From: Cyanidioschyzon merolae
Lineage: Eukaryota
Length of the DNA: 64,000 bases
Reading direction: 5' to 3' (one strand)
Assembly (NCBI GenBank): GCA_000091205.1
Contig: AP006496.2
This document shows, piece after piece, positions 6,451 through 32,812 of the stretch; the stretch's first letter is position 1; the number at the start of each line of letters is the position of its first letter. The position numbers and the translations under genes were made by a program. Below the pieces are notes generated by a model. It was given only the letters and a program-made list of their open reading frames with translations, ran no database searches and was not told the DNA's origin.

Positions 6451-6502
6451 CGTCCTTTCTGAACCGCCAATTTTTCGATAAAAGCCCGAACTGCGTGAGA
6501 TT

Positions 6503-8110: not shown

Positions 8111-8600
8111 AAGAACGCATCAAGGGACGATGCCGAACGTTCTTCTTCGTACGTCTAGCGGCGGGAACGGTAGTGCGCCTACCAGTTGCAAAGGAGCCGC
8201 AAAATCGACCACTTGAAGCGCGCAAGATTTGAGCGTGCCACATGAAAGAAAAAGAGAAGCGTCGAAGTTTGCGCGTATGTATTGGTTGATGATGCCCAAT
8301 CGTGTAGGAAAGCTTGTCTCATGGCGTTGCGGATCATCCTGGTGAAGGTAACGTAACGAATACCAGGAACGATGCGTCGAAGGAGCCACTCCGGACAGAC
8401 GACCAAACATCCTAAACCTACGTATGCATCCATTATACCTCATTGCTGTACTTCGAATGTCAAGGCTGCACCTCTAATGAATCGTTCGAACACAAAATCA
8501 AAAGGCAGGAACACACCGATCTGTTCAGTGTTCCGGCTCGATTCGACACCGGCTTGGATGGACGAGCGCGTGATACGCTCGTAACGCCGGGGACTCTCAT

Positions 8601-10937: not shown

Positions 10938-12464
10938 ATGCTGTGCCAAGTTCGAGGCAGCGAAAGCGATCTCCTGCGGCTTGCTGCCGAGAACCCCGAG
11001 GGATTCGGACCCTGCATACGGCCCAGCGGTTGCTATTTTCGGGAAGAACTGGACGCGCTTCTGGCGCGCCCGCCTGTTGATGGACAGGTGCGGCAGCGAA
11101 GTTTTTCGGGAAGTTTGCTACCGAAACTGGGCGCGGCAGCGCAGGGTCTCAGTGCGTGCTGCACAGGGCTGGAATCAAGGCGTTGCGTTGCGCAGCTTGG
11201 GCACGTCAGTAAGCCACCAGCTGCGCTTTGCGAGCGTCTGGTTTTGTTTATCATTGACTATGACGACACCTTGTATCCAACGAGTCAACTGGGGTCTGCT
11301 GTGCTTCAGCTACAGAGGTTGGAGGAGCTGGCCCAGGCGCAGGCTACCCGCGAAGCTTCACAGCGTGCGGTGGAGGTTCCGCGCTCCCCGAGGTGCTCCT
11401 CACTGCCGCCGAGTCCTGACACGCGTTCCTCAGTGATGCTTGTTTTGGATGACTCTATACCCTATCCGAGTTCCATGCAGCTGGACCAGCACCCATCGGA
11501 GGCGGCTGACGAGATGCATGCGGATGCTCCGTCGGCCGTGCCGAGCATTCGCCCTGGCAGGAGCCCGGGGACCCCGTACGCCACCAGCGAGATCACGTCG
11601 ATATTCACGCAGTTGGCGTATGCTCCCGCTGAGCTGTACGCCTTATGCGTTGAGCTCGACGAAACGGTTTCAGCCTTTCTAACTCTCTGTCTTGACTCGG
11701 GTCGGAACCATCACGTCTCTATTGTAACGAATGCTGACTTGCGTTGGGTGTTTTCCTCGAGTAGGGGCGCGCTACCCCGTACCCATCGTCTGCTATTTGA
11801 CAAAACCGTTTTCGACGCGGAGGCTGGTGCCATTCACACCAGCACTAGCACGAGCCGTACATGTGCTTGCATTTCGGCTCGCGGGCGGTATGGTGACCTG
11901 CGTGATGACGGTACCGAGGCCGTCGGCAGAGACCCGACTGACTGGAAAGTGGCCTGTTTTCGCGACGAAATCGAGAGAGTTCTTGGCGAACGAGATGCGC
12001 TAAGGCGTGAATGGGCTTTTTGGCAGCAGCAGCAGGAGCTCCGCAAGCAAGTCCTGCACGGAAGCACACTCTGGGACGATGCGTTCGAGACCGTATGCGA
12101 GAAGGAGCCCTGCGAACGCTGTCTGGATGCACATCGGCAATTCGAAAGCGATCGACGGCAGCGAGGTATTCGTATGCCTTCCGTCGCCTCCCGAGCTTGT
12201 TTGACGAAAATCCCCTTTGACCTCTTCGTGATCGGTGATAGTGAATATGAAATGGAAGCTGCTCGAAAGATTCATGTCGAATTTCCCATGGCCCGTCTGA
12301 AAGCCATCAAGATGATCGAAGAACCTAGCATGGTGGATATTATGCATCAGCTCAGAGAACTTGCGAAAGAATTACCAGCGTTTATTCAGGCCCGTGGAGA
12401 TCTCCAGCTGGAGCTGGCAAAGTCAACTGGTACGTCTTTGGATGACGTGCACACCTTAACTTGA
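10938..12464 (+). CDS. HAD-superfamily phosphatase-like protein carrying a large low-complexity insertion.
   Basis: Motif I 'LFIIDYDDTLYP' is DxDxT (MDP-1-like DLDYTLW). The motif II candidate is 'HHVSIVTNA'. Motif IV is 'LFVIGDSEYEMEAARK'. About 300 aa of S/P/A-rich sequence lie between the core motifs. The track start at 10920 is TTG; the ATG is at 10938. Confidence 0.5.
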   Translation: MLCQVRGSESDLLRLAAENPEGFGPCIRPSGCYFREELDALLARPPVDGQVRQRSFSGSLLPKLGAAAQGLSACCTGLESRRCVAQLGHVSKPPAALCERLVLFIIDYDDTLYPTSQLGSAVLQLQRLEELAQAQATREASQRAVEVPRSPRCSSLPPSPDTRSSVMLVLDDSIPYPSSMQLDQHPSEAADEMHADAPSAVPSIRPGRSPGTPYATSEITSIFTQLAYAPAELYALCVELDETVSAFLTLCLDSGRNHHVSIVTNADLRWVFSSSRGALPRTHRLLFDKTVFDAEAGAIHTSTSTSRTCACISARGRYGDLRDDGTEAVGRDPTDWKVACFRDEIERVLGERDALRREWAFWQQQQELRKQVLHGSTLWDDAFETVCEKEPCERCLDAHRQFESDRRQRGIRMPSVASRACLTKIPFDLFVIGDSEYEMEAARKIHVEFPMARLKAIKMIEEPSMVDIMHQLRELAKELPAFIQARGDLQLELAKSTGTSLDDVHTLT

Positions 12465-14697
12465 TTGCAGAACCGCTTGTTTGCTCGCGTAAAACATGTA
12501 CACTGACCAAGATCAAAATGCAGGAACGCCAATATCTTCTACGAATTGCCTGGGAGAATCGGTCCCGGTTTCTGTATACAGCGATTCAGGCTTGCTGGAC
12601 GCCTGCTTCGTGGAACCCCAGTGTCTCGCGATCGGCGAGAGTCCAACGCGCTCTCACCCGACCACTGATGTATTTGCATCGCAAGTCTTCGGCAATTCAG
12701 TGCATTACCTAGACTGTGTTCTAAACAATGCCCTCCAAGTCCACGCACCCCAGAGCCGCTAAAAGCCCCGGAGGCATGACATCATCGTCGAAAAATGACC
12801 AAGGTGTTCAAGTCTGTGTCCAGAGAGTGCTTGCGCGCATGGTCGCTGGCGGAATCACACGGAAACGAGCGTCGCTCCATCGATCGCATGGCCATCCGAC
12901 GTTTCCTCATCTTAACGGACATCTTCTGATGCATATGAATTTGTTTGCAATCCCATCTTCCCGATCTATTCCAGGTGCACCTGTGCTCTTTATAAGCGTA
13001 CCTCGTCCGAAACGCATCGGTGTTCGTGGTCCAGAATCGATTCCTGCACCCGTCGCACGTTGTCGTCGAAGGATGCGGCGTGCCGCTTTCGTGCGTGGCA
13101 CTACGTCCAGCGTTATTGGATACCACGAAACGGCGCCTCGTATCGGCGATTTCCATCTTCAATTCATTGCAATGTATCATGGATGCACGCATGTTGCCTC
13201 CTTAGAACCGAGACCTGTGGAGATGTCGGCTCGGTTTCGTGGGCACCCGCCAAAGATCGCCCGCATGAGCCGCTTGGACGCTCATCTACGCTCTCTGAAT
13301 AAAGCCTCCAAAACGTCCCTTCTGCTTGGTAGGGTGCTCAGAGCATGGTGATGTGTTCGGATACCGTCATGCCAACTGTTCGTATTCCTTTTAGCGTTCC
13401 TATGTCCGACGCTCAATCATACAGATCCCTCGACAAACGGAGCAGCTCCAACTGCTTTCCGTTCCTGCGTTTCGCCCCGTGCGCTCGATTTTTCTGTACA
13501 GCAACGACCATGACGATCTTGGACCCGGAATCCGGGCTCACCACGAAGCGTTCCTCTTCAGCTGCCTTGCACGGGTGAAAACGAGTCTCGTTAGATAACT
13601 CAGGCCTTGATTTCAGGAGTTTTACACAGATCATGCAGATGGATATTCTGTCGGTCTCTCAAGTCTTTGCGTACTTCTTTCCATTTTCTGCCCGTCTACG
13701 GGGAACCTTGATCGAGCTCCACCAATGCCCATTGCGAACTTTGTCGAATGCTTCATCGTTGATCACAGGTACCGACTACATCGCTTGTTCTTGCGCGGTA
13801 TGCTGCTATAGATGTCGCCTCTAGACTTCATACCCGCTTACTTCCGGTTAGTTCAGACGCACTGGATGCGCAGCAACACAGAATCACGTCTTTTCTATGT
13901 ATTTACCCACCATTCCTCGACTACAATTCATTCACCCTCTACGTCGTGAGCACGCTCACGGGCAGAAGCGAACCTTTCTGCCCCGGCCCGAGCTCGAGTA
14001 GAGAAGCGGCGTACCTGTCCAATGGTGCTGAAGGTAGAGAACAACTCGAGTAGAAACATGCGAGTTTCAAAACGGTGTTCGATAACAGACAAGACACCTG
14101 CGACTGCACTTACCTGGATCGACAGAACTTCTACACTAGCCAGGCATCGCCGATTCCGCGATTATCGTCGGTATCGCGGAGCGTGTCTCTCGTTCTTCGT
14201 ACGACATTCAAGCTCCGTAACCCATACTTATCCATGGAGATTCTGGCCATTCCGTACGTTTCATCGTGCTTCAAACCTGCCGTGAACGTCCGTCATAGCA
14301 CTTGTGGCGCCGGTGCGCACGCTACATGGAACAGAGCAGTGTTGTTTTGGACTGTACTGATGTAGGGCGAATAGGCTGGCCCAGGGAGCAGCTCAACGCC
14401 AATCTCAGCTGCATAATCCCTCGGCCGCTTTTGAGTGATGCAACCCGAAGTCGTCCATGACCAGGACAGAATCGTGTCGGCAGGAGAATCAGCGAGCAGT
14501 ACTGCGATGAAGGATGCAGTGTTTTACCATACTGCCGCTCTGGCGACGAACAGACGACCGCATGATTGCATCGTCGCTCGGGAAGCTGTTGTGGACGCGC
14601 GCGCATGGCCGCCTCTGTACGAAGAGCGGTTTGCCCCTACTGGAGTTCCCCTGCAAACGCCTGTCATGTCAAGTCTCGTCGAGTGAGCCGAACACGT

Positions 14698-14726: not shown

Positions 14727-16511
14727 AATAGGCGGTCGCATTCCAGTACGTCACCGATGATGTGTTGTTCATGGAATGACGGTCTAGAAGCGCGATATCG
14801 TTTCTTCTATCATCGTATCGTATCGAAAATGCAGAGAACTTTACATGCGCTGACTTCATTAACAGTACTTCGCAGACAACCTACGGGGTAGGATGCCTTG
14901 ACGAGGACAAAGGCATGTAAACAACGCTTGAAAAGTTCTTCTTTGGGTGCACAACATTCAGTTCAAGGACCAGAATACTTGCAATGAACCTACCTGCTGG
15001 CCGTATATATAATGACGCTCACAAGTGAGGACGTTTTCTCGCGCGAGCAGTGTCAGTATGATGTGTTTGAGGAACCCTCCTCCGATCAACAAGTTATATT
15101 CTTCTGTTGAATATCCGCGAGACGAAATCACAAAAACAAAAACGGGTGTGCTCACAAAGACGTTTCAACACTCAAGGCTCTGAGTGTAGCGCCACGGTAT
15201 ACCTAGTCGACAGTCCAGGCTTTGTATCCAGAGCGTTCCACATAGATCGTGTATCCGTAGTGTACTGCGGCCGGAAAAGCGCCTTGCGCACCGAAGCCGC
15301 TCCCACACTCGTAAAACATCACCCACAGTGCATCACAATCGGGCGGTGACTGGCATGCAGCCGGCACCCCGTACAGCCAACACGCGACGAGAGTATTCAC
15401 AGAGCACTTGGTTTTCGATACCAAAGTACCTGTTTACATTCGAAAACACCAATGGGATTGCAGTCCTGGAAGACGGCACCTCGCGCAAAGTCGGATGCTC
15501 TATGCCGGGGAACGGCGCACCGTGCGCTTCGCTCGCCCTGGGATCAGCAACGGACTCCACGCGTTTCAGGGAATGTGAAGAGAACAAACACGAGCCAGGT
15601 CCGGAATCTCTGATGGTTCGTTGCATCGAGTTTAGAGAAATGGTCGAAGCGTCGCTACCGAACACAAGCGGATCCGGTACTTCGCCATTTTCGTTAACGC
15701 CTGGCATTTGCCAGGAGTGTCCGGTTCCGTTGCAGATCAATGGTCGTTGCACAACGAACAGCATGCGATCCACAAGACTCGGAACGAGAAGCGCATACGT
15801 GCGCATTCAAACAAATACGCTCATTAGACGTGGGATTCCGAATGTGCTCGGCGGTGTCAGTCCAGAGTTTCCTCTTTCATCACTCCAGGTGATCATGTGC
15901 ACGCCCTTAACTCCTCTGAAATGCTGCACTACACTTCAAAAGATATTTGGAGACGTCGACAGCAATGAAGTCACTAAAGATAACCTTACCACCATTACCA
16001 AAGCAAATCTCTGTTTGAGCGCACTTTGTATGCATCAATCGCCATCATGACCCGGGAACGACATGACATCACTGGAAGCACCGCGTATCATGTACGCATG
16101 CGCTGTGTATGTTCTATGTATGCATCGTATACAAATCATAGATTGCCTATTCATGAATCATGCATCCGCGCTCTAGAAATACTCGATGCACGCACGTACG
16201 CAACGCGTCGACCTAGGCGGATATCAGGTAAGCGGCATGCGTGCATGCTGAAAATACCCAAACAAGTATCATAGAAGAGATCTTCTTTGTGGCGACAAGT
16301 AACCAGACTAAACCGATGATTACTTCCTCGGTATGTGAGCGCAGGAAGAAAACGACACATCCCGAGAACGCTGGCAACGTTCCCCGTAAAACAGCGCCGC
16401 CAACATAGCTGCTTTGCGCACCCTGCACATGCATGCATAGAATGCGCTTGATGGCCCAAAATATTGGTACTTGGGGAAGCGCCTTGGAAAACATTTTCCA
16501 GACCGCAAATC

Positions 16512-18761
16512 TTACGCATGCTGCCCATCCAATACGGCATCCACTTCTTCGGCATCGACGGCAAAAGCTGAGACAAACCCCGGTGTTGCTGGTGCAGGAT
16601 GCGCGAATACACTACCATTTGTCGGTGCATCCTGGTCATCGAGAGCGTGCTCCGTCTGTCGTCGCCACATATCTGCATAGTGCCCATTCAGCGCGAGAAG
16701 CGCTGTGTGCGTGCCTCGCTCCACAATACGGCCTTGGTGTAGCACCAGAATCTCATCGGCGTTGACGATTGTTGCGAGTCGATGAGCAACGACCAAAACC
16801 GTTCGATTTTGGCCCAGCTCATCCAACGCAGCTGTTATCTCGCGTTCGGTTTTCGAGTCAAGCGCCGAAGTTGCTTCATCCAAACAGAGAATCCGCGGGT
16901 TCCGGAGGATCGCTCGTGCAATTGCTACCCGTTGTTTCTCACCACCGCTGAGGCGAATGCCGCGCTCGCCGACTAGCGTATCGTACTGGTCGGGCATCGC
17001 ACGAATCGTCTCGTCAATTTTGGCAAGGCGGGCGGCCTCCTCTACCTCCGTCTTGCTCGCGGTTACGTTGCCGTAGGCGATGTTGTAAAATATCGTGTCG
17101 TTAAAAAGAGCTGCCTCCTGTGGAATGAACCCGATCGCTGCCCGCAACGACGACTGGCGAATATTGCGAATCGATTGACCATCAATCAGGATATTGCCCT
17201 CTGTTGCATCGTATAGGCGGTACAGGAGACGTAGGATGGTCGACTTGCCGCCGCCGCTTCCGCCGACGATAGCCGTCTTCTTCCCCGGTGGCACTCGGAA
17301 ACTAATATCGGATAAAACAGGACGCAGCTGACCAGTTACCGGTTCGGGATAGGCGAAGCTCACACGCTCGAAGCGGATCTCGCCGCCTTGACGCAGTTCC
17401 AGCTCGACTGCGTCAGCAGCATCGCAGACAGTAGGTCGCCTTCGTAACAAATCGAATAGATTCTCCAAGTCGACAAGAGCGGCTTTGAGCTCCCGCGTTT
17501 GCCATCCGAGGAACTGCAGCGGCACGCTGAGTTGCTGGAACAGCGATCCAGCCATGACGAGGTCACCGACGGTGAGCGCCTGCTGGACAACACCCCAGGC
17601 GCCGAAAGCATTGATCATAGCATAGGCGACGTTGAAGATCGTCGCCTGCCCTGCATTCAGGAGCGCATACATGCCCTCGTTGCGTACGGCACACTCCTCG
17701 TACGCAGCAAGAACCTTGTCGAAACGGACAGTCTCAAAATTAGCTCGGTCAAAGTATTTCACTGTATCAAAGTTCATCAGCGAGTCAGTGGCCTTGGCGT
17801 TGGCCTCATTATCCAAGTCATTCAAGCGCCGCCGAATAGGAATGAAAGATCGATTCACCCGCAGCGTGAAGAGCACGTAAAATACAAAGAAGGCCAGCGT
17901 GGCTGCGCTCATACTCCAGCTTAACCGCGTTGCCATGATCACGCACACCAGCAACAACTCGAACATCGACGGCAGAAAACTCAAGAAGAGCGCTCGAAAA
18001 AGCGTCATCACCGAGCGGGTGCCACGATTCACAATAGCCGTGACCTGGCCGACTTTGGCCGTCAACAGAAACGAATGATCCAGCTCCAGGAGGTGCTTGA
18101 ACGTCGCACGCGAGATCTGTCGACCTATGCGCTGCGCAGCACGAATGAAGACAATGCTCCGCAACTCATGCAGGACGTTGCCTAGCGTTCGCAGCATGCC
18201 ATGCATGCAGAAGAGGATAATCGCAATGAGTGCCCAGCGCTCTCCGGTTGCCGCCCCACTGCTCAGTGCATCGATACCACGCTTGAATAGAAACGGCACA
18301 CAGACTAGCAGCACTTTCGACAGCACCATAAGGACCAGGGCAATCATAAATCGGCGGGGCAGATCAGGTTCGTGGCGAAACAGTGCTTGTAAGTACCGCA
18401 GAAATACCCGGAACGTCGACTGGGCGCCTGGTAGCGAAAGCTCTTCCGCAGTCCGGTATTCGGCGTCAAAAGCAGACTGTTTCTGGAGACTGTAGGGTTC
18501 CAAGAGCCTTCTGTCAATGCAACACTCATCGATATCATGCACGGGTACGAAGAGCTTTTCGAAGACCTCTGGTGACCCGGTCGGCGGTTTCGAGGCGTTT
18601 GCTGCTGAACAGCGCCAGCTGCGGGCCAGCGGCTCCTTGGTCGGTTTTCGCAGCAACTGCTGGTACGGCGTGCACTTTGCTCGAGGCGCGCAACCCGGAA
18701 ACCGCCTTGGCAGACTGGTTCTGTGTAACGTCACGCGAGGTACAGCGAACACGAAAGCCAT
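16512..18761 (-). CDS. ATM1: Mitochondrial ATM1/ABCB7-type ABC half-transporter (ABCB family).
   Basis: It has TMD then NBD architecture. Walker A is 'GGSGGGKST', the ABC signature is 'LSGGEKQRVAIARAIL', and Walker B is 'ILCLDEATSALD'. The N-terminal TM region 'RRFMIALVLMVLSKVLLVCVPFLFKRGIDAL' and the C-terminal 'LNGHYADMWRRQ' resemble ATM1. The track start at 18782 is GTG; the ATG is at 18761. Confidence 0.88.
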   Translation of the reverse strand: MAFVFAVPRVTLHRTSLPRRFPGCAPRAKCTPYQQLLRKPTKEPLARSWRCSAANASKPPTGSPEVFEKLFVPVHDIDECCIDRRLLEPYSLQKQSAFDAEYRTAEELSLPGAQSTFRVFLRYLQALFRHEPDLPRRFMIALVLMVLSKVLLVCVPFLFKRGIDALSSGAATGERWALIAIILFCMHGMLRTLGNVLHELRSIVFIRAAQRIGRQISRATFKHLLELDHSFLLTAKVGQVTAIVNRGTRSVMTLFRALFLSFLPSMFELLLVCVIMATRLSWSMSAATLAFFVFYVLFTLRVNRSFIPIRRRLNDLDNEANAKATDSLMNFDTVKYFDRANFETVRFDKVLAAYEECAVRNEGMYALLNAGQATIFNVAYAMINAFGAWGVVQQALTVGDLVMAGSLFQQLSVPLQFLGWQTRELKAALVDLENLFDLLRRRPTVCDAADAVELELRQGGEIRFERVSFAYPEPVTGQLRPVLSDISFRVPPGKKTAIVGGSGGGKSTILRLLYRLYDATEGNILIDGQSIRNIRQSSLRAAIGFIPQEAALFNDTIFYNIAYGNVTASKTEVEEAARLAKIDETIRAMPDQYDTLVGERGIRLSGGEKQRVAIARAILRNPRILCLDEATSALDSKTEREITAALDELGQNRTVLVVAHRLATIVNADEILVLHQGRIVERGTHTALLALNGHYADMWRRQTEHALDDQDAPTNGSVFAHPAPATPGFVSAFAVDAEEVDAVLDGQHA

Positions 18762-20129
18762 GCTTGGCTCGAACGTGCGCACCAGTGCACCGCGTAGAGA
18801 AGACGGGCCCAGCTGAAGCCTATGTCCTCTGAATTGACCAATGAACCTCCAAAACAGTCAATTGACGCGAGAGAAATTCTCGCTAGCTTCACCACAAGCA
18901 AGAATGTTGAGCGTTCCGCCCACACCTGCCGAGACGGTGGAACCAATGGAACCACGCGGACGCTACAGTTTCTTCAAAATACGAGCGCTCTATCCAAAGG
19001 GAGCAGCTAACCACGCCGTATCCGTCTAAAAGCGCAAGTTTCGTGCCAAAGCCTCCGTAGCACGCGTTCGTAGCCTATATCGTTCCTGGTGCAACCTGAA
19101 GCTCCGGGGATTGTTTCGTGCGATCGGCACCGGATCGTTCACGCCCGAGGCGAGCGGCCGAGGACGCTTCATTCTGCGAACATGAAAATCGAAAAGTGCC
19201 GTGCCGCAACGCTCAGGATTCGCTGGAAGGCACACCTGGACGCTTCCATCGGTTAGCAAAGAAATAGACTCGACACAGGTGTCGGTGAAGAAGCTGACGG
19301 TGCTTTCGTATGCACAGGCTGCGCTCAGACGTACCGACACACGCGTCGTACTATCGTGGAACACTGAGATACAGGCTCTGTTCTATGCTTGAGATTTTTA
19401 CGAACATGTTTCTCGATGTACATCCTCAATTTTTGACGTACAACAAAAAGGATTAATGAATGCAAGTTTAGTTTGGGATTATTGATTGTCAGTTCGGAAT
19501 GGCTCATTCGACGCGTTCCCGCTGGAGTTCGTGACGATCCGAGACTACAGATGATTCGTGACGCTCTCCAACAAGAGCTCCTAAACTAATCGATATAGAC
19601 ATCCAATGCATACGTAAAGGCCTGCACGCTCGTCCTTTCCTGACGTATACCATGCTCAAATCATGCACTATTCAAATTTCTGGTCTCGCTGTTTCAACGC
19701 AACGCGCGGGAACAGCAAATCGCGCTGCAGTATTGACGAGGAAAAGAATCCGACGACGAGCCCTGACAGCTTCCTCATATACGCTTATGCCGTAAGTTCC
19801 ATGAATTTGTCGCATCAAGTGATCGACTCCGTTCGATAGACAAATTCTCATCGCTTTGCGGCCTTCGGCGAAACTGGACTCGACAGCAGCATGATACCTC
19901 GCATGGGATATGTTTCCAGAGACGGCAGGCTCTTCTGCTCACACGGGAATGGGTGTTAGGCTCGGACTTCAGTCACCGCAGTGATCGCTTCTGGTGGAAG
20001 GTGCGCCAACGCTCGGCATGATGGGTGCCTAGGCGGGTCGAAAGCTGTTGCCTTCTCCGCCAGCTTGGATTCTCCTTCCCGAACTTGTATCATTATGGTC
20101 ATCGTCGCTTTCCGTAAATCCTCTATCGA

Positions 20130-20900
20130 ATGAGACTGTGTGCACTTGCGTGCGCAGCAGACGGAATACTCGCAGAGGGCATCACCCAGAAGAAGCCCGT
20201 CACCATAGGGTACGGCACCCAGCACGGAAACGAAGGAGCGCATCGTGACGAGCTTTTCGTACCCGTCATCGGCACGTACCGAGTGATGAAGGGAATGTTC
20301 ACGTGGAGCAGAGCAGACCTCGGAGAATCAGGTACGGTGGACATATCCGAACAACTGGCTACACGCAGGAGTCGCTGCTGTAAAGCGTGCACTGAGACGA
20401 AACGCAAAAAAGATGAAAATGAGAAGTGAGGCGTCGATCGCAACGACCGTCTGGGCATGAAATGCGTGCAAAACGTACACAAGTAGCGAAACTGGGACTT
20501 AAACGCTACCGTACATATCCGTTGACAGCGGACAATGGAACATGAGGGATTGGTGAGACCGTCGTCGCATTGAAAGCTGATCACGAGAGAGAGAGGAACA
20601 AGATGCGGTTGCAGAAAAAATCTCGTAGAGGCTGGTGTTGATGAAAATGAGAAGCGTCCCAAACTTGAGGGTTTCCATCCGAACGAGTATCCCGGTTCAG
20701 CGTTATTCTGACATGGGCGTGAAAACATCAGAGCATGGCTCTGGTCCCTGCAATGCATCATGCCGCCTCTGTTACGGTCCGCTTCGCTCTGGTATGCTCG
20801 AGTGCGATATCCACTAATGGCAGTGGTCTCGCGCGCCTGCTCAGCGCACGGAACTCGACTGCGCATGAGCCGCAGCGTTTCGCGCACCGGACTTGCACTG
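20130..20900 (+). mobile_element. TnpB/Fanzor-like relic, family 2 copy 2.
   Basis: ORF 20130..20429 'GITQKKPVTIGYGTQHGNEG...VDISEQLATRRSRCCKACTE' carries the RuvC-II E and a CxxC. The RuvC-III box 'WDLNATVHIR' (D at ~20486) is immediately followed by a stop. The downstream tail 'tctgacatgggcgtg' is shared with copy 3. It lies immediately 3' of the helicase gene. Confidence 0.6.
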
Positions 20901-20944
20901 ACTCAAACGCATACCCGATCAGCATCAGCCGGGTATATCCCGAG

Positions 20945-23900
20945 CTAATGGTCGAGCGTGTTCAGTGCCGTGCCTGCCAGCGACGGCGGCAGCGGCTCGC
21001 AATGCTCCAGAACTCGTCGCCATATGGGATTCGAGGTCAATGTGAGTCGATGGCCAGTAATGATGAGGTGATGACTGGCCCGAGTGAGCGCGACGTTCAC
21101 ACGTTCCAGCGAATCCAGTAGTTGTCGACCCTGAGACCGGCAGCTGCAAACCGTCGAGAGCACAATCAGCTTGCGCTCGCCGCCTTGAAAAGCATCGATG
21201 GTGCTGATCTTGACGGATGCCATACTCCAGCGACTGGATTCGATTTTCGCTGCCGATATCCGAGGCCTGTGCCCCAATTCGGCGTTGTCCGAGGCGTTTG
21301 CAAGGTGTTGGATAATGGCGGCTTGGGCCCGATACAAACAGATAACCCCCACTTGTGTGGGTTCCATGGCAGAGCACCGCGCGATTCGCTGGAGAAAACG
21401 CACAATCCATTGCGCTTCCACGCGATTGAAACGACTCTTATCCAGGCTAGCTTCGTCATGACCATCGATTGGCACAAAAGTAACCGGGGCGAGCCTGGGC
21501 ACCGCCGCTGGAAATGCGGTAATCGGGTACGCGCTTCGTACGGCGCCTCCATAGGCGAGCTCGGATGCGATCTGAGCAATCTGGGGATGGCATCTGAACT
21601 GCACAGTGAGATATAGGTTCAGTACATCGGCTCGTTCACCGAGGCGCTTCAACAGCGACCTACTTATGCAGCACTGGTCGGGAACGTCTTCCGAGGACCT
21701 GCCGCTCATCAATGGGGGCAGTTGTCGCTCGTCGCCGGCGATCACGACAAAGACGTGATCGGCGCCGAGTTCTAGAATGGGTGCCAGAGCAAGCGGCTCC
21801 ATGATCTGCGAGGCCTCATCAACGAGAACGACATCGAAGCGGAGTCCGTGCAGAATGGCCTGCGTTGCAGAAGCGCAGGTAACACCGACTACTGATCGAC
21901 TCCGAAACGCTTCTCGACTTGCTTTCTCAACTGTTTCAGAATCCAGTTCTTCAGCTGGTGCTCGTAGATCGAGACATGAGTCGCGTCTTCGCTGCGGACA
22001 TAGCTTCGTCGAGGTTGCATTCCCTGTGAAACAGATCTGCGGGGCGCTGACGAGCTTCATCAGGCCGGTGCGGCATCCACTTCCCGACACGCGTTTCCGC
22101 AGCGCCGACATTGATTGCTCCACCTGCGTGCTGTCTCGAGGAGACGGAAATTCACCGTCCACGGGGGCGACGGTGGGCGCCTCATGCGACATAGCTTGAG
22201 CGATATTCGTTCCAGCAGACGCTGGATGGACCTGCATGGAGTCTCGTCCATTGTCTACTGTCGCTCGACGGAAGCGTTTCTTGAATCCCTTTAGTGTGAA
22301 TTCGCACACACTTGGATGCATTCGCCCTTCGTTACCCGCGCGAGCAAAGTCCTTGAAGCCGCGCTGCAACAGCCCAAGTAGAATATTGTCGACGGCGACA
22401 TTGGTACCAGCAGCAACGAGGATACGAAGCGATGGTTGTTGCTCTAACATTGCCAGGATGCTCTCCACCAAGGTTCGGGTCTTGCCAGTGCCAAACGCTC
22501 CGTGCACGGCAACCAAATGAGGTCGATCAACGCCTCTCGCTTGCGAGTCCTTGCTTCTAATGAGAGCGACGCCGTTCAAACACGCCTGGATGACTTGTTG
22601 TTGTTGTTGTTGTTGTTCCAAGTTCCAAGCGGATGAAACGGTTTCCAACCGCTGGTGCTGCGCAGCGCATGCTGACGCCAGCTCTGTTGGAACGCCACCA
22701 CTGCTAGGACATGGCGAGTCGAGCGAAAAGAGCGTGCGCTGCCGTCCCTCAAGCTGAACAGCGGGATCGGAAGAAGGCTTTGAATCGGAACGTGTACCCG
22801 GTTCGGCACTCGACGGCACAAGTGGAATGTCAGCATTTGCAAATGGTTGCCCGCCGCAACTTTCTAGCGACTTTTGATCCTCATTCCGAAGAGGGACTTG
22901 CTGGAGACAATCATTTTGCGCTTGTGGCTGCTTGGTATTGGTGGTTGCTACCGGAGAACCGACGAGCTGGCGCAAGACATGGAGCCGCCCGAACGGCTCC
23001 TCGTTCAAAAACGCGTCTAAACACAGCAGCTCTGTGGGCAAGCATGCGCAGCACATGACGAGAACGCTACAAGGCTGCTTTCGCCATATACGACGGTTGC
23101 AGCGTCCTAGCGGCTGGACCTCCAAGAGGCCGGATACCGTCGAAACGCCATGGTACAGGGAGCGCACCAACGTAACTCCATCAGCGACTGCGGATGAATG
23201 TTCGCTACGGAAATGCTCCCGCCAAGCTGTGCGCGTTCCGAGGGCCCAGAGCGCGTCACGGTCCAGGCAAGTGGCGAATTCATCGAGTCTGCTCTCGGGT
23301 CGAAAGCGCAGAAAGTACTTCGTACCGGGAACCAGTTGATCGTCCGGCGGTTGTTTGGTTTCGTCATGCAAGCCATGGCGAGTTCGCTGGGCGTTTTTGG
23401 CTGTTCGCGACATCACAGCGAAACTTTCAACGCCATGTCGCACGATGAGAGCAGAACCTTGCCGATGCGGAAGTGCAATATGTGCATATGCAGGCTGTTT
23501 TGAGGAATGGTCCAGAAGTTGCTCGCAGGCGCGTTCCAGAACTTCAGCCTGAGCATCAAGCTGCTTTTGTATCTGTGCAGCAAGCAAAAGGAGCATCTCT
23601 TGACGGTATGCGGGAATCGAGTTCCATGTATTGGTTGTTTGGAGCGATACTTGAGTACTCGAAGACGATCCAGCTGGCTTGCGGCCACCGGGACACAGCT
23701 CGCCAACATCCGCAGTTTCCTTGCGACTCGAAGCGCTCCTGCGCGGGAACGTGAGCGTCAGATCCTGCGCATTCGTGATCTGCCGGCTAGCGCTGCTGCG
23801 ATGTCTCACCGAAACACCGACGCTGTCGATTGCTCCCGAGGAAGGGAGACACGTTGCAAGTCGCGGATGCGACGCGCTGACCCGAAACCGAGGCGGCTCT

Positions 23901-24886
23901 GTAGACGCGTCAGCGTCTTTTGCAAACGCGCTAGGGCCGATACCGCAGCCGCTTACCTGGGGACGTGTAAAACACGAGCCCTGGGGTGCTCCCGCTGTCC
24001 CGGACGCATCGAGCGGGCTATCCTCTGCCAACATGGACAGGAGTTGCTCGTCGCTTAGCTGGACTCGGGGGCAACGCTTCCCATTCTCAATCATGTTTTG
24101 CGGTCCCTGCATTGGTGCCGAGTCCTCATGCGCACTGCCCCCTTTGACCGCACCAACCGACGCACCAGCTTTGTGGTTTGTTGATGACTTTGGCCTTGAA
24201 AACTGCGCCGCGGTTTTCGAAGCCTGCACGCTACGTTCTCGCTGGTCCAGGTCTAGCCCTGTGCTCGACAACGATTGTGCATTGTCGAAGCATGACTGTC
24301 GCCACGCGGGACCTGGAGGCACACGTTCGTATGGTTCCGCGTGCGACTCGCCGGCGCTCCGAGCGCTATTTATTGAATTTGGCAACCGGCCAAGCCTCCG
24401 TAAACCGGTCACCCCGAGAGGTCGACGGGTGCTGTTCGCCGGTCTGACTGTACCTTGAAGCCCCGTCTGTAAGCTTTCACCGTCACTTGACGCTGCACGC
24501 GGTGACAGGCTATCCCGAAGAGCTGGCGGCGCTTGTTTGCAGTCCTCCTCGACTGACTCCACGGGCTCCAGAACCTGCACCAAGATCTGGTTACCGAGCG
24601 AGAAAACCTCGCCGCTAACGTCAATTTTCGTCCTTGGCACCGTCTCGCTGAACACTGTACGTCTCCTTTGATGTGCACGACTCGCACACGCGCTGGAGCT
24701 CGACTCGGGAGACTCGTCCGTAGGCACTGTTTCATCTAACAGCTGCAACCGAACGCGAGCCTCGTTGCCCGGCACCGCACTGCTTTGAAGAATACCGTCC
24801 TTCCAGCGTTTGGACTTGCGATGAACATCGAACGAATAAAGCACAGACCAGCGTTGTGGTCCCGCAGAAGTCAGCCGCGTGGGCAT
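20945..24886 (-). CDS. UPF1-like superfamily-1 helicase (AAA_11/AAA_12 type) with a ~700-aa low-complexity N-terminal region.
   Basis: Motif I is 'GAFGTGKTRT', Ia is 'VAAGTNVAVDNIL', II is 'VLVDEASQIME', III is 'VIAGDERQLPPL', IV is 'QFRCHPQIAQIA', V is 'IDAFQGGERKLIVLSTV', and VI is 'RVNVALTRASHHLIITG'. This is not the Pif1/Helitron type. The track start at 25012 is TTG; the first ATG is at 24886. Confidence 0.85.
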   Translation of the reverse strand: MPTRLTSAGPQRWSVLYSFDVHRKSKRWKDGILQSSAVPGNEARVRLQLLDETVPTDESPESSSSACASRAHQRRRTVFSETVPRTKIDVSGEVFSLGNQILVQVLEPVESVEEDCKQAPPALRDSLSPRAASSDGESLQTGLQGTVRPANSTRRPLGVTGLRRLGRLPNSINSARSAGESHAEPYERVPPGPAWRQSCFDNAQSLSSTGLDLDQRERSVQASKTAAQFSRPKSSTNHKAGASVGAVKGGSAHEDSAPMQGPQNMIENGKRCPRVQLSDEQLLSMLAEDSPLDASGTAGAPQGSCFTRPQVSGCGIGPSAFAKDADASTEPPRFRVSASHPRLATCLPSSGAIDSVGVSVRHRSSASRQITNAQDLTLTFPRRSASSRKETADVGELCPGGRKPAGSSSSTQVSLQTTNTWNSIPAYRQEMLLLLAAQIQKQLDAQAEVLERACEQLLDHSSKQPAYAHIALPHRQGSALIVRHGVESFAVMSRTAKNAQRTRHGLHDETKQPPDDQLVPGTKYFLRFRPESRLDEFATCLDRDALWALGTRTAWREHFRSEHSSAVADGVTLVRSLYHGVSTVSGLLEVQPLGRCNRRIWRKQPCSVLVMCCACLPTELLCLDAFLNEEPFGRLHVLRQLVGSPVATTNTKQPQAQNDCLQQVPLRNEDQKSLESCGGQPFANADIPLVPSSAEPGTRSDSKPSSDPAVQLEGRQRTLFSLDSPCPSSGGVPTELASACAAQHQRLETVSSAWNLEQQQQQQQVIQACLNGVALIRSKDSQARGVDRPHLVAVHGAFGTGKTRTLVESILAMLEQQPSLRILVAAGTNVAVDNILLGLLQRGFKDFARAGNEGRMHPSVCEFTLKGFKKRFRRATVDNGRDSMQVHPASAGTNIAQAMSHEAPTVAPVDGEFPSPRDSTQVEQSMSALRKRVSGSGCRTGLMKLVSAPQICFTGNATSTKLCPQRRRDSCLDLRAPAEELDSETVEKASREAFRSRSVVGVTCASATQAILHGLRFDVVLVDEASQIMEPLALAPILELGADHVFVVIAGDERQLPPLMSGRSSEDVPDQCCISRSLLKRLGERADVLNLYLTVQFRCHPQIAQIASELAYGGAVRSAYPITAFPAAVPRLAPVTFVPIDGHDEASLDKSRFNRVEAQWIVRFLQRIARCSAMEPTQVGVICLYRAQAAIIQHLANASDNAELGHRPRISAAKIESSRWSMASVKISTIDAFQGGERKLIVLSTVCSCRSQGRQLLDSLERVNVALTRASHHLIITGHRLTLTSNPIWRRVLEHCEPLPPSLAGTALNTLDH
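22595..22616. repeat. (TTG)n microsatellite, encoding poly-Q on the minus strand within the helicase.
   Basis: ttgttgttgttgttgttgttg. Confidence 0.9.
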
Positions 24887-24949
24887 GCACGCGCGGAGCA
24901 GACAAGACAGCAACGCTGCATGCACGCATGCATTCCCGCCATTGCCAGG

Positions 24950-25560
24950 CGACTGGTGACGTCGTTTCGCTTCGATGCGTGGCGTTGTCCATAAAATGAT
25001 GCAATGTTTCAAAAGTTACATCTTCTATGCGTACGCATGCCCGAGGGGCATACGTGTTCCGTGGAGCAGTGCCCGAGCATGGCGGCGGGTGCTCCATATA
25101 CATGTCCGTAAAACTTGAAATGTTCTACGACCACGACGGGTATGCGTACATTTTTACGCGCTTACGCCTCTTAGCTTTTCTGACCGGCATTCTGCTATCG
25201 GTTTCAGCTTCTCCTTGCACAGTTCGAGCCTGACAGGCTGCCAAGTGAAGCAGGAATTGTGTCAGCTCCTCGGGTCTCGTCTTCAGCACCGCACATCGTA
25301 TGATATTGATGACGGCGTTGAAGTCTCGCTTCACCAACTCCTTGCGTTTATTGCCTCTGGTTGAACTCACCAATGCAAGGATTGCTAGAACTCGTGCTCT
25401 CTGTGCCGTTTGCTGCAGTGTCAGCGCTGCGCTGCCTTCTCTCCATCACGATCTTCTGCAGTGTACATCCCAGCACATCCCTTACATATTTTGATTCTTC
25501 AAATGTACGCACTTCTTTATGCCCGTAGGTAAGGAATTCCCCTGAAAGAGAAGGACTGGT
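24950..25560 (-). mobile_element. TnpB/Fanzor-like 3' fragment, family 1 copy B.
   Basis: Minus ORF 25125..25373 carries 'KRDFNAVINIIRCAVLKTRPEELTQ' (RuvC-III). The upstream frame 'EVRTFEESKYVRDVLGCTLQKIVMERRQR' is homologous to copy A 'IDEFRASYTHHELGCTLQRVEMETCQRR'. The 3' tail at 24950-25125 aligns with copy C (for example 'cgatgtgcggtgctga.gacgagacccg.ggagctgac'). It sits within 70 bp of the helicase start codon. Confidence 0.65.
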
Positions 25561-26188
25561 GGCAGAAACAGGTCATGCGCCCTGGTGTGTCACCGTGTGC
25601 TGAACGCATCAGCGATTCGCCCAGTGCAGCGATGTTTACGTTTCACGATGGAAAACATACACTGAATGGGCATGAACCACGGAGTGTACGGCGGAATGAA
25701 AATCAGCACTATCCCCGCCAGAATTTGCAAAAACCCCGAACTTAACGGTAATCTAGAAATGCCACGTGGTCCTTTAGAAGAGCGTCGTCATACGGCATCG
25801 AAAATTCTCCAATGATTCGACAAAGAACGTGCTGTTGTATCAGCCTTGCCTGTGAGCGAAACTGAGGCCGCCAAGTGGATCCGCTCCACCTGGACCAGAC
25901 GATGATTTCCGAGTTCTCCTCACGTTCGATTGTACATACAACGGAACACCCTGCTCCGCGAATACCCGTATACGCTCCAACCGTCTCATCCGATGAAAGT
26001 CTCATCAACTGAAAAAACAAACCGACTTGCCTGTGCTTCATACCGATGGTTGAGTTCTGTGAATTCTGTTGTTGCGGATTCGGCGGAAGCTGTGCTTTCG
26101 TGAACCTGGACTTTATTGCGCCCGGATCCCAGTGTTTTGAGGGTCAAACGAACAATCTGTTGAGAAACAGAGACGCTTGTGGGAACTA

Positions 26189-26461
26189 TTATCGTCGCTC
26201 TTTGCCTTCCGCAAAGAGATCGATCGGTTGTTTTTCTACCGTAGACCGCAAAAAGTCTTTAAAAATATCGGTTTTTGGCACTAAACTCCTTTCTTCTTTC
26301 ACTGTTCCTAAACTATCCGCGTACCGTGGTACGACTGACCTGAAGGAGGAGCGCAGTCCTTCTTCCACTGTCCAGAAAAGAATATATATACTACAAGCGA
26401 TTCGTCTACGATGTATACGATACTTTGCATCGTGATTTCGATAGCCTCCTACGTGCCACAC
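26189..26461 (-). mobile_element. Fragment related to a Tc1/mariner-type transposase N-terminal HTH.
   Basis: 'VPKTDIFKDFLRSTVEKQPIDLFAEGKER' is homologous to 'APKTDILKECLREMVENDPSFTLRKAKT' in the ORF at 31734..32132. Confidence 0.35.
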
Positions 26462-26700
26462 TCTGGGTGAAACAGACTTGCGTTGAAAGATTATGAAAAC
26501 CCATGCAGCCTAGCAGGCAGGTCGGAGTACGTAAATGAATCATATTGTTCCGTTCACAATGCAACGAGTCGCGCAGTCGGCTGCGGGCGGACGAATCGCG
26601 TACCGCGAGCCACGTTGTATGAAGCGGTGTCTGTCTTCGCACTGAAGTCGACGTCGATACTGCTTCTCCGGACGCTCGCTTCAACGCGATCCGGGAGAAG

Positions 26701-27255
26701 ATGCGGCCTCTTACAGAGGACCAGACTCGCCTCGTTTTCGAAAAACTTGCCCGATATATGGGGAAGAATATAAAGCTGCTGTTAGATCGACCCGATGAGG
26801 AGCACTGCTTCCGTTTACACAAGAACCGGGTGTACTACGCGCCGGTACGTCTGATCCGCCAGGCAACTCGCGTGCCGAAGGACGATTTGATTTGTTTCGG
26901 CGTTTGTGTAGGCAAGTTCACGCATTCTGGCAAGTTCCGCGTCGAAGTGACGTTTTTGGACTATCTTGGCAACTATGCACTAGGAAAAGTCTGGCTGAAA
27001 AAGAGTTCCGAAATGAGTTTTCTCTATGGGAACCACGTTGTCAAAGGCGGCGTGGCCCGTTTCACCGAGGGTGCAGTCAAGAACCAAGCTGTGGTCGTGT
27101 ACAACGAGGACGATATTCCTCTTGGTTTCGGGGTCATGGCCCGGTCTGTTGTTGAGTGCGGCATGGCAGGTCCCGAAGACCTTGTTGTTCTGAACCAGGC
27201 GGACCTGGGGATGTATTTGCGCGAAGAGGGGACGCTCTCCGCTGCAGCCTCCTAG
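26701..27255 (+). CDS. NIP7: 60S ribosome subunit biogenesis protein NIP7.
   Basis: It aligns along its full length with NIP7: 'MRPLTEDQTRLVFEKLARYMGKNIKLLLDRPDEEHCFRLHKNRVYY...SFLYGNHVVKGGVARFTEG...VVVYNEDDIPLGFGVMA' (PUA domain). It is 184 aa with an ATG start. Confidence 0.92.
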   Translation: MRPLTEDQTRLVFEKLARYMGKNIKLLLDRPDEEHCFRLHKNRVYYAPVRLIRQATRVPKDDLICFGVCVGKFTHSGKFRVEVTFLDYLGNYALGKVWLKKSSEMSFLYGNHVVKGGVARFTEGAVKNQAVVVYNEDDIPLGFGVMARSVVECGMAGPEDLVVLNQADLGMYLREEGTLSAAAS

Positions 27256-28863
27256 AACTGTGACTTCGGCGACTGCACCGCGACTTGCCCGGTGCAGAGT
27301 ACCAATCGGATTGCATTCGGTCTTGGTGAACAGGGGATTGCTGGAGTTACGGCCCGAGGAATTTATGATATACGCTTTGAAGTTGCTAAATAACAGATGG
27401 CGGCGGGAGCATTCGGAGCGGAAACGCATGCACCACATCTGGGGCAAATGATATTTAGGCGATAGAACATGGTATCTTTACAGTCTGCCGCAGCACAGCG
27501 ACCTTGTGTGTCGTACCCTGAGTTCTTTTACACACGCATCACCGTCCCTGAGTAGATTGTGTACGTTCGTTTCCGCAAGCTTGCGAACCAAATGCGGATT
27601 CAAGGCCATGCGAGTAGTTTGTCCCGAATACGTATGGGCGAGGTTTCGGAAACATGATCTTGGTTCCGATGTGGACGCCTATCCCGAAAGGAACGGGATG
27701 TAACCAGCCTTATAAACAGAGCAGTTAATTCTAGAACAGCTGTACCAGCACGCTCTTTCTGTTGGTACATGTCATTCTCGCGGGTATTAAAGAAACAGAT
27801 AGTATCCTCTAGACTAGAGAATCGTCACGGAAATTCGAAAAAAATGTCACTATTTGGGAATGAAATGGCCTCACTTCAATAAATCAGTAATTCTACGCCC
27901 ATCAGCCGGATGAGTCATGTCCCTCGTTGGCAATATGCTGAGCGCCGTGCACCAGAAATAGAACATATCAGACGCTGTCTGCACAACTGTCTCCTGATCG
28001 TTTCATTCTAATCCATGCGATCTCAAAGCAACGCTACCCAAGCATTCATAAGATGCAGAGATTCCGTGCCGCACATGTGAACGGAGATGAAGAGACACCG
28101 ATGGACAAAGAAAAAACAAGCTTCCATGGCAGACCGTGGCGCGTTGAACCGGACACAATCGAATTCGCACTGAAACGCGACCGCATACGATACGAGCTAC
28201 AGCTATTCGTCCCAGTCGATGAGCGTGTACGCGGAAGAAACCCTAGACATGTATAGGAGCATTCAAAGAGTGGTAAAACGCTGCTCGCAGGGAAGGGGTG
28301 ACAGAACATGACGACTTGAGAGTTACGATACCTCGCAGGTCTCACGAAAGTGCAGCAGTAGAAGCTCGCTCTCCCCTGGTCGAGACCTATGTAAACTGTA
28401 GCGGGGAGCAAGTACTGAGAAACTGAAACCGATCGGAATCGGCTGGTCAAAAAAGTCTCGGAGGCGCCTGCGCGTGCGTAGATGTATCCGCCATCGATGG
28501 TTGTGAAACGTTCTCGTTCTGCTGACCATTGAGAATATCGACTGGTACCGGTGAATCACGCCTTGGTCCCTCGCCTTGATCGACTTGACAAAACTGTTCT
28601 GTCTCCGTGCTGCATGCGCGCCGGCACGATCAGCGCACTATCGCGGAGGCTCGCGGCCCACGATGCAACGTAAGAAACAACCAGTCTCGCTGGGGGATCG
28701 TACGGGTACTGGAACTTGGAAGCAGGTGAAACCACGAATGCTTCCTCTGATCGCTGGCATCAAGCGCACAATGGCAGAGATCCCTGGTCTATATGTGTAG
28801 ACGAGCTGTCGAGCACGAGGCATCTGGAGAATGTGTCGAAAAAACACCCGTGATCATCATCAT

Positions 28864-31620: not shown

Positions 31621-31733
31621 CACCGCAGCCGTCTACAAGATGCGCGCGCGCGAGCGACGCTCGACACATCTTTCAACTCAATTTTGTTTCACCCTAGCTG
31701 CGGTGGTGAGCAGGAGCTCGAAATCACGATGCA

Positions 31734-32132
31734 ATGTACCCTGTAGATTGTAGAAGAGTTGCCAGTAGGATATACTCTTTACTGCATAGTTCAAGGAGGA
31801 CTGCGTCTCTTCTTCAGGTTAGTCATACCACAGTACTACGCTGGTTGAGGAACACGGAAAGGAAGAAGTATAAGCGCTCTGCGCCTAAAACCGATATTCT
31901 CAAAGAGTGCCTGCGGGAAATGGTAGAAAACGACCCATCTTTTACCTTGCGGAAAGCAAAAACGACGATAGAGGCCACCATAGGCGTATCTGTTTCTCAC
32001 CAGCTTGTTCGTGTGGTCCTGAAATCACTGGGATACCGTCGCAGAAAAGTCCGACTTCACCCACGACCAACTTCCACCGAACTCGCAACAACAGCGTCTC
32101 TGGAAAGTCGCTATCGATATGAAGCCGAGTGA
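31734..32132 (+). mobile_element. Tc1/mariner-type transposase fragment with only the N-terminal HTH DNA-binding region; no DDE domain follows.
   Basis: 'SHTTVLRWLRNTERKKYKRSAPKTDILKECLREMVENDPSFTLRKAKTTIEATIGVSVSHQLVRVVLKSLGYRRRKVRLHPRP' follows the Tc1-like paired/HTH pattern (compare 'KIAAELNS.GIKVSVSTVKRVLHRHGLRGCRARKKP'). Confidence 0.45.
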
Positions 32133-32812
32133 CGCTGGTGTGTTTTCTCAGTCGATAAGACTTGCTTCGGGTGAAACGGGCGGCGCGTATACGGGTATGC
32201 GCGGAGCAGGGCGCTCGTTGTACGTCTGGTGAAGCTCGAAGAGAACGGAGATATCATCATCCGTTCTATCTGGAATGGATTCATTTGGCAGCCTCAGTTT
32301 TGGCTCCTAGAGAAGACTTACAGAACAGCACCAACCATATTATCGAATCATTGAAGACTTTTCCCTGACGTCTGGTGATGTCCTTCTATCAGACAACGTG
32401 GTATTTCACCATTCGCAATGTGTTCAAGCTTGTGCGGATGATATCTGGGAACAGAGTCGCTCTTCATTCCTTCGTACTGTACGTGTTTCGGCTTCATCAA
32501 AAGAGAGTTTTCTATCGCGGAACGTTAGGATCGCACCACTCGGCGAATCGCTGAAGCGTTCTGCGCAAGGTGACACACCGGGGCACATAACCTCTTGCTT
32601 CCACCAGTCCTTCGCGCTCCGGGAAGGTCGTCACCTCAGGCCATAAACCAGTGCCTTCATGTTCATAAATAAAAAATCTATGGGAAAGTTACGTGCATAA
32701 AAGTCGAGGATGCTGGCGACCCGCTGGGTCCCGCGGCAACTCCTGCGTTCCTGCGAATTTGCGCTCTCGATGCAAGTCAGATAGGTTTTCCTTTGTAGGC
32801 ACGTTCCAAAGA

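Follow-up and report, generated by a model that had tools for sequence, protein, structure and literature searches.

In a 64,000-nucleotide stretch of contig AP006496.2 (GenBank assembly GCA_000091205.1) from the red alga Cyanidioschyzon merolae, hereafter the window, a gene for a 1313-aa helicase is bracketed by two relics of transposable elements, one upstream ending in the tail of the Fanzor1 element CMe-1A and one downstream belonging to a different family (family 2). Our analysis makes it very probable that the helicase gene is a single-copy host gene of the ZGRF1 type and that the relics on either side of it are decayed, neutral chimeras of a transposase and a Fanzor. The source is strain 10D, as the NIP7 and helicase proteins encoded here are identical to BAM81224.1 and BAM81223.1, respectively. 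An earlier interpretation made from the letters of the DNA (the sequence-only reading) had described a UPF1-like helicase between Fanzor-like relics of two families; the Fanzor-like tails were borne out, but the larger 5′ part of each relic, a remnant (in the upstream relic a probable one) of a Tc1/IS630-type DDE transposase, had been overlooked. CMe-1A is already published, with ~150 copies at ~80% identity to its consensus (PMC3627910), and the additions made here are modest, namely the recognition of both relic families as transposase-Fanzor chimeras, a 1.38-kb family bounded by terminal inverted repeats (TIRs) and a corrected identity for the helicase.

The open reading frame (ORF) of the helicase runs uninterrupted for 1313 aa plus stop from its first ATG (20945-24886, minus strand), as had been predicted, and its assignment draws on Pfam, identity to BAM81223.1, orthologs and synteny. 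The motifs DEASQ (21806-21820), QFRCHP (21584-21601) and VALTRA (21077-21094) are present as quoted in the sequence-only reading, and a Walker A motif, GAFGTGKT, lies at 22478-22501. A search among 5.8 billion clustered proteins returned only the 90%-identity cluster of the helicase itself (P0001; 27 members, of which one comes from 10D and all others from environmental haplotypes) and an ortholog with the same domains (P0002, 39% identity). An exhaustive search of 1.84 billion representative proteins, made with aa 400-1313 only and leaving out the N-domain, ranked P0001, P0030 (57%), P0002 (53%) and P0031 (43%) first, followed by a drop to E ~1e-59, and no paralog was found among these representatives. 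By these protein searches the gene is present in one copy. The gene order L23-Trx-CREG-Prx-NIP7-helicase-ABC is kept in three cyanidiophyte relatives (L007, a JGI metagenome contig; L009, GCA_013995675.1; L010, GCA_026184775.1), which have diverged substantially, NIP7 being 70-87% and the ABC transporter 64-81% identical to the window proteins. A database gene model from yet another source (P0032), in which NIP7 is fused to the helicase, agrees with this adjacency. Alignment of the helicase with P0002 revealed a conserved N-domain (~aa 1-110), a conserved middle domain (~aa 420-640) and a conserved motor separated by divergent linkers, and such confinement of conservation to domain regions is what host proteins under purifying selection typically show. 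A word-indexed protein search with this alignment yielded nothing further.

The sequence-only reading had favoured a host gene over a transposon passenger, which the single copy and the synteny in three relatives without relics confirmed. It had also allowed that the whole unit could be a composite mobile element. All that speaks for the helicase and the two relics forming one such element, or for the helicase being the passenger of a transposon (Helitron-like or other), is the bracketing itself, with two transposon-derived ends facing the helicase. This possibility is refuted, with a probability that is practically negligible, because the helicase is single-copy and lies between NIP7 and the ABC transporter in relatives that have no relics there. 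The two relics, moreover, belong to different families with ends of their own, both family-2 TIRs falling within 19337-20721, and the domain regions of the helicase show ortholog-type conservation. The sole likeness to Helitrons and other helicase-bearing transposons is a superfamily 1 (SF1) helicase ORF beside transposon-derived DNA; in contrast to theirs, the alga helicase is Upf1-like (AAA_11/AAA_12) rather than Pif1-like, has no Rep/HUH or Pif1 domain in Pfam, is single-copy and is syntenic.

In GenBank, BAM81223.1 is labelled 'similar to regulator of nonsense transcript stability', and the sequence-only reading had likewise called the helicase UPF1-type. That name fits the motor, which is not of the Pif1 type, but not the whole protein, which has a ZGRF1-like_N domain and no CH domain. 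The helicase core (21047-22537, minus strand), delimited by Pfam, PDB matches and motifs, consists of AAA_11 (aa 784-1060, E 1.7e-29) and AAA_12 (aa 1075-1280, E 1.8e-37), and its nearest solved structures are UPF1/Nam7 (E 1e-30 to 2e-29, aa 969-1299), then DNA2, SMUBP2 and SEN1. The N-terminus matched ZGRF1-like_N (DUF2439, PF10382) with E 1e-5 and 26.2 bits against a cut-off of 23, the best-matching stretch being aa 12-36 (24779-24853, minus strand), and the same domain is precomputed for P0001 and P0002. Apart from these, the Pfam scan of the helicase gave only AAA_19, AAA_30 and UvrD-type matches, with no UPF1 CH domain or UPF1-specific insertion domains. Among the best 51 cores from the exhaustive search, 17 carry ZGRF1-like_N and 17 a GRF zinc finger, and none of the 21 families reported for these 51 is a UPF1-, DNA2- or SEN1-specific domain.

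Human ZGRF1 is built from DUF2439, a GRF finger and a helicase, and is a 5′-3′ DNA helicase with a role in recombinational and crosslink repair (PMC7473174). The alga protein shares the N-terminal DUF2439/ZGRF1-like_N domain with human ZGRF1 (C4orf21), Mte1 of S. cerevisiae and Dbl2 of S. pombe, and like ZGRF1 it has a C-terminal Upf1-like SF1B helicase, the nearest relatives of its core being of the ZGRF1 type. It differs from ZGRF1 in having no detected GRF finger and in being much shorter than the ~1,900-2,200-aa ZGRF1-type homologs among the matches. UPF1/Nam7 offers the best-matching solved core and has DEASQ, QFRCHP and VALTRA in common with the alga protein, which nevertheless has no Pfam-detected CH/zinc-knuckle domain or UPF1 insertions and whose N-domain and nearest homologs are of the ZGRF1 type. 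Judged by its domains, the helicase is a ZGRF1-family protein in which a DUF2439 N-domain is followed by a long disordered linker, then by a conserved middle domain and an Upf1-like motor, and by homology it is most likely a 5′-3′ DNA helicase in recombinational repair. The GenBank label is accordingly misleading, and the corrected identity is relevant to work on recombination and repair in this genetically tractable alga.

To the upstream side, the sequence-only reading had placed a Fanzor relic on the same strand as the helicase, which was confirmed by mapping the 3169-bp CMe-1A consensus (PMC3627910, supplement 2) on the window with blastn. The relic ends in the 3′ part of the CMe-1A Fanzor1 (25070-25477, minus strand), equivalent to consensus ~2737-3169 by blastn and alignment of tails, with the last 50-70 nt degraded. 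Between 25477 and 25259 it matches consensus 2810-2985 at 76% (176 nt, E 8e-31) and 2737-2773 at 84%, it is 73-78% identical to other CMe-1A tails, and it retains the RuvC-III motif RDFNAVINI (25302-25328). No intact Fanzor ORF is present in this relic: RuvC-I and RuvC-II are deleted, stops and frameshifts interrupt the rest, and only consensus ~850-900 and 2737-3169 are left. The segment just upstream of the Fanzor ATG (consensus ~850-900) occupies 25478-25521 (minus strand) in a three-copy alignment with the consensus, and at the junction 25478/25477 the homology jumps from consensus ~900 to 2737, marking an internal deletion. The relic was said to end ~70 bp from the helicase ATG; four-way alignment put its consensus-equivalent end at ~25070, which is ~180 bp from the ATG, and recognisable similarity fades already near 25117-25140.

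The remaining part of the upstream relic (25522-26491, minus strand) was read from self-blast and Pfam as a probable relic of a Tc1/IS630-type transposase with helix-turn-helix (HTH), DE... and PPYTP motifs and many stops. The segment 25478-26491 is 70% identical to 31668-32685 by self-blast and 68% identical to the copy in loci L032/L035, and comparison of the transposase relic with the 5′ part of family 2 by hhalign gave E 0.0036. PDB sequence searches with the pseudo-proteins of both transposase relics and a profile gave no usable match. The CMe-1A pre-ATG region follows on from the transposase relic, with one and the same orientation, in all three independent copies (25.5 kb, 32.7 kb and L032). 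Compared with published CMe-1A, which was left unclassified, whose consensus has no transposase and for which the authors found no TIRs (PMC3627910), the copy beside the helicase thus keeps the tail at consensus 2737-3169 with an internal deletion of ~900-2737, and the three copies join the Fanzor unit, from about consensus 850, to the 3′ side of a Tc1/IS630-type transposase relic.

Further CMe-1A-related sequences were observed in the window and elsewhere. The second copy of the transposase relic (31668-32716, plus strand) continues into the CMe-1A sequence ahead of the ATG and on into the first ~15 Fanzor codons (KVEDAGDPLGPAAT vs KEVEDPGGPVSPAAG), which lie at 32683-32716, and it ends ~100 bp before the ATG (~32812) of a thioredoxin-domain gene. 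A near-full copy of CMe-1A (4029-6430, plus strand) is 85% identical to the consensus, is without consensus ~820-1080 and contains a 75-bp triplication of consensus 2117-2196 (5240-5464), which recurs in the metagenome locus L014. Fragments of the CMe-1A 5′ end were mapped at 9-278, 2875-3081, 10414-10471 and 28586-28728. Short deletion derivatives, in which consensus ~790-968 is joined to ~2831-3169, occur at several genomic sites (L015-L046, e.g. L018 11303-11789). Because similarity among these derivatives starts near 790, positions 1 to ~790 of published CMe-1A, which include TE-N2_CMe, may lie outside the Fanzor unit.

On the downstream side, a Fanzor-like relic of a different family had also been predicted, and this was upheld by a PF07282 match above the gathering score and by 21% identity to CMe-1. 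Five copies of family 2 are present in the window. The one next to the helicase, copy B (19337-20721, plus strand and convergent with the helicase), was delimited as a non-autonomous TIR element with a 17-copy consensus. In it, the remnant of a DDE transposase of the IS630/Tc1 type (~19450-20195) is fused to a C-terminal Fanzor1-like part (~20118-20690) that carries RNWDLNATVHI (20487-20519, plus strand), and its TIRs lie at 19337-19362 and 20696-20721. The 3′ TIR therefore ends 223 bp from the helicase stop, and not ~45 bp past it as first proposed.

The consensus was built from copies found by scanning metagenome contigs with a peptide of the Fanzor frame, which gave 39 loci; matches covering at least 900 bp of the consensus were kept, and the 43 matches in these loci together with the window represented at least 17 different copies, and in almost all of these the transposase and Fanzor parts form one unit. 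Across the 17 copies, column identity rises at a sharp boundary from ~0.38 to ~0.7 and falls back at the other end, defining an element of 1.38 kb whose termini are ~26-bp inverted repeats (ACACCCRTGTCAGAWTRAAATGGAAC) positioned exactly where conservation starts and stops (5′ ACACCCGTGTCAGATTAAAATGGAAC vs the reverse complement of the 3′ end, ACACCCATGTCAGAATGAAATGGAAC). The TIR emerged only from this multi-copy consensus, a search within single copies having returned nothing consistent. In the 5′ part of the consensus, DDE_3 matched with E 1.1e-8 (35.5 bits, cut-off 28.6) and ended at profile position 113 of 146, HTH_33 matched with E 3.6e-4 and HTH_Tnp_Tc3_2 with E 8.3e-4. In the 3′ part, PF07282 (Cas12f1-like TNB, formerly OrfB_Zn_ribbon) matched with E 1e-6 (29.2 bits, cut-off 26.3), the reading frame VIVGYGTGHGN...VVD..EHLTT..C..C...C.KC....RDLNAA.NI was recognised, and this part is collinear with the C-terminus of CMe-1 (21% identity, E 8e-4). 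The consensus contains no complete RuvC triad and no Fanzor N-terminal or RuvC-I region, the part upstream reading as DDE transposase. An hhalign comparison of the family-2 5′ profile with the single transposase of PUl-1 was not significant. A five-copy consensus had at first suggested a pure transposase relic (DDE_3 E 6.8e-4, sub-threshold), which was overturned by the Fanzor frame and the 17-copy consensus. The copies are old, with ~66-72% identity to that preliminary five-copy consensus, and the 1.38-kb family may already be named in Repbase or Dfam.

The other family-2 copies in the window lie at 7440-8490, 35680-36740, 42047-43200 and 56380-57660 in the five-copy alignment, and by analogy with copy B their Fanzor-side ends are probably ~200 bp longer. 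For copy A, the probable extension to ~7190 would overlap the ORF at 6391-7383. Copy E (56380-57660) contains a 123-bp tandem duplication (56832-57077). Neither homologs nor domains were found for a 254-aa ORF at 20123-20887 (minus strand), which is probably spurious.

The Mariner/Tc1 elements PUl-1, PUl-2 and PGv-1 carry Fanzor1 (PMC3627910, Fig. 3), and the C. merolae families resemble them in order, with the transposase ahead of Fanzor1 on the same strand and TIRs at both termini, while differing as non-autonomous deletion derivatives. The probable ancestors of both relics are Tc1/IS630-type transposons with a Fanzor1 cargo gene, from which internal deletions removed the central part. The upstream relic (26491 to 25070) would then comprise a full-length transposase remnant, the region upstream of the Fanzor gene, a deletion of ~900-2737, and the Fanzor C-terminus with the 3′ end; in the progenitor of the downstream relic, the transposase would already have been cut just after its PPYSP-like motif, with the final third of another Fanzor1 attached there. 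Since three copies share the transposase-CMe-1A junction, an ancestral composite of transposase and Fanzor1 that was later deleted is the simplest reading. The junction of CMe-1A with a Tc1/IS630-type transposase and the second chimeric family would place the C. merolae Fanzors among the Mariner/Tc1-borne ones.

It is also conceivable, though unlikely, that the chimeras arose from independent nested or adjacent insertions and truncations, by which a Fanzor came to lie beside an unrelated Tc1-like element. The CMe-1A consensus without transposase or reported TIRs (PMC3627910), the short CMe-1A derivatives that have no transposase part, the failure to find an intact composite parent and the small number of copies of the upstream transposase family at hand (three) would all be compatible with such insertions. 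Separate insertions would not readily account for a DDE-Fanzor junction shared by nearly all of 17 family-2 copies inside one TIR-bounded unit, for three upstream-family copies with the same junction in the same orientation, or for an order on one strand that is that of the Mariner-Fanzor1 elements PUl-1 and PGv-1, and we therefore prefer deletion from a composite ancestor.

The 3′ end of a Fanzor is the region that encodes Fanzor guide RNAs. We consider it quite unlikely, yet worth stating, that the Fanzor1 genes of CMe-1 and of the second family were Tc1/IS630 cargo, that their abundant TIR-bounded internal-deletion relics keep the transposase-proximal end and, for a reason beyond the TIR that it carries, the Fanzor 3′ end, and that the upstream copy perhaps came with the inversion of NIP7 described below. 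If the 3′ end had indeed been kept for a cis requirement or for guide-RNA-directed homing by a trans-acting Fanzor, these relics would represent a new kind of non-autonomous RNA-guided element.

The orthologous loci were then compared with respect to the flanking insertions. Six environmental haplotypes (L001-L006) match the window with 99.3% identity and are collinear with it over 16.7-31.4 kb (to 35 kb in two cases), and both relics are present in all of them, so that no insertion polymorphism of the relics was found among seven C. merolae haplotypes. In L007, L009 and L010, the spacers between NIP7 and the helicase (325-1130 bp) and between the helicase and the ABC transporter (233-1312 bp) showed no similarity to the relics by blastn or tblastx, and none was found in L008 either. 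Being absent from the spacers of the three relatives and present in all seven haplotypes, the relics are confined to the C. merolae lineage, where they are fixed. Two non-autonomous DNA-transposon copies would thus have inserted in the helicase spacers after C. merolae split from its sequenced relatives, and would have decayed since.

The same comparison showed that NIP7 is inverted in C. merolae: in L007, L009 and L010 NIP7, the helicase and the ABC transporter stand in tandem on a single strand with NIP7 upstream of the helicase, whereas in the window NIP7 is divergent from the helicase (26701-27255, plus strand; identical to BAM81224.1) with the upstream relic in between. The CMe-1A 5′ fragment at 28586-28728 (minus strand, consensus 82-231) and the 3′ tail at 25070-25477 (minus strand) were considered as parts of one split element marking the inversion breakpoints, and this idea was dropped because no simple inversion gives these orientations and because such fragments are common, with four in the window; the same orientation of the CMe-1A fragments on either side of NIP7 may be chance. 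The MATE-cullin-L23-Trx-CREG-Prx-NIP7-helicase-ABC block spans 13.6 kb in L010 as against 29 kb in C. merolae (16512-45621), much of the difference being transposon relics, and the locus thereby offers a clean before-and-after comparison of relics inflating an otherwise compact genome.

The sequence-only reading had further proposed that the element tails now supply the flanking regulatory sequence of the helicase, which is not supported by the arrangement found here. A relic-free 5′ spacer with no repeat or consensus match separates the helicase ATG from the upstream relic (24887-25069), and a unique 223-bp 3′ spacer separates its stop from the family-2 3′ TIR (20722-20944), conservation among the 17 copies being at background beyond the TIR and no repeats being found there. 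From their position, the core promoter and 5′ untranslated region (UTR) most likely lie in 24887-25069, and the terminator and 3′UTR likely in 20722-20944. These unique spacers (~180 and 223 bp) are close in size to the complete spacers of L010 (325 and 233 bp). Among the seven haplotypes, the transposase relic has 6.9 single-nucleotide polymorphisms (SNPs) per kb, the CMe-1A tail 9.8 and family 2 17.4, compared with 8.1 at fourfold-degenerate sites, 6.4 at other coding sites and 15-30 in other intergenic stretches; these densities rest on small counts (4-7 SNPs in the upstream relic). The density in the relics is about that of synonymous sites, with no signal of constraint.

Regulatory co-option, in which the upstream relic would serve as promoter and 5′UTR and the downstream relic as terminator and 3′UTR of the helicase, maybe after the inversion of NIP7, thus appears very unlikely. 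It would be in keeping with an upstream relic that lies on the strand of the helicase and makes up 1.42 kb of the 1.81-kb divergent spacer, with a helicase 5′ neighbourhood that, given the inversion of NIP7 relative to three relatives, was rebuilt in the C. merolae lineage, with the fixation of the relics in all seven haplotypes, and with SNP densities in the upstream relic (6.9-9.8 per kb) below those of other intergenic stretches. Those densities, however, match the fourfold-site level and come from few SNPs, the unique sequence beside the coding sequence is comparable to whole L010 spacers, and the same kinds of relic adjoin many unrelated genes of the window. The relics, fixed, old and evolving at about the synonymous rate, with neither encoding an active protein, are most likely neutral spacer DNA.

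Several points weigh against the overall reading of a ZGRF1-type host gene between two neutral transposase-Fanzor relics. The Pfam matches of the upstream transposase are sub-threshold (HTH_Tnp_Tc3_2 E 1.8e-6, 28.6 bits against a cut-off of 31.5; DDE_3 at PPYTP E 3.6e-3, 17.6 bits against 28.6), and the call rests on these together with the order of motifs. In the helicase, Pfam gave no Zn_ribbon_GRF match at E <= 0.01, although a GRF zinc finger is expected in ZGRF1. In further difference from PUl-1, PUl-2 and PGv-1, no TA target-site duplication is visible at the flanks of the 17 family-2 copies, the left flank often ending in CT, and a protein search with the family-2 pseudo-protein found no intact Tc1-Fanzor parent; origin from a composite by internal deletion is drawn from the three shared junctions and the analogy with PUl-1. 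Finally, the upstream relic, which has the orientation of the helicase, takes up 78% of the divergent NIP7-helicase spacer, and distal promoter elements of the helicase or of NIP7 could sit within it.

The window as a whole is intron-poor, with 50-60% GC and ordinary housekeeping genes on both strands. These include genes for a HAD hydrolase, an ABC transporter, NIP7, a peroxiredoxin, a CREG-like protein, a thioredoxin-domain protein, a cullin, a MATE transporter, a DCN1-like protein, a leucine carboxyl methyltransferase, VPS28 and NCBP3. The ABC transporter gene (16512-18782, minus strand; ABC_membrane and ABC_tran) is the conserved neighbour downstream of the helicase. Rfam and tRNA scans of the whole window gave no matches, and no Pfam domain was found in the long ORFs (207-514 aa) at 6391-7383 (minus strand), 10920-12464, 12728-13351 and 15328-16050 (plus strand), and 41517-42185 and 59207-60160 (minus strand). 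Between 18.7 and 29 kb, sequence with copies elsewhere is confined to the three relic segments, and the stretches adjacent to coding sequences are unique. Going by an approximate list of genes, sequence recognisable as relic accounts for ~18% of the window and for ~30% of the DNA outside its genes, and ~10 of 19 genes have a relic within 260 bp of one end. With relics near about half of the genes, the bracketing of the helicase is unremarkable and ordinary for intergenic DNA here, and as first posed it matters little, dead transposon copies beside conserved host genes being the rule in this stretch.

Two other spacers of the window hold repeated sequence of note. In the spacer 3′ of the DCN1-like gene, a 98-bp tandem repeat of ~3 copies that are 96-100% identical occupies 48521-48829. 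The gene for the leucine carboxyl methyltransferase (50200-52326, minus strand) has a CMe-1A 3′ tail (49875-50161, plus strand; consensus 2889-3169) ending 39 bp from its stop codon, nearer than either relic is to the helicase.

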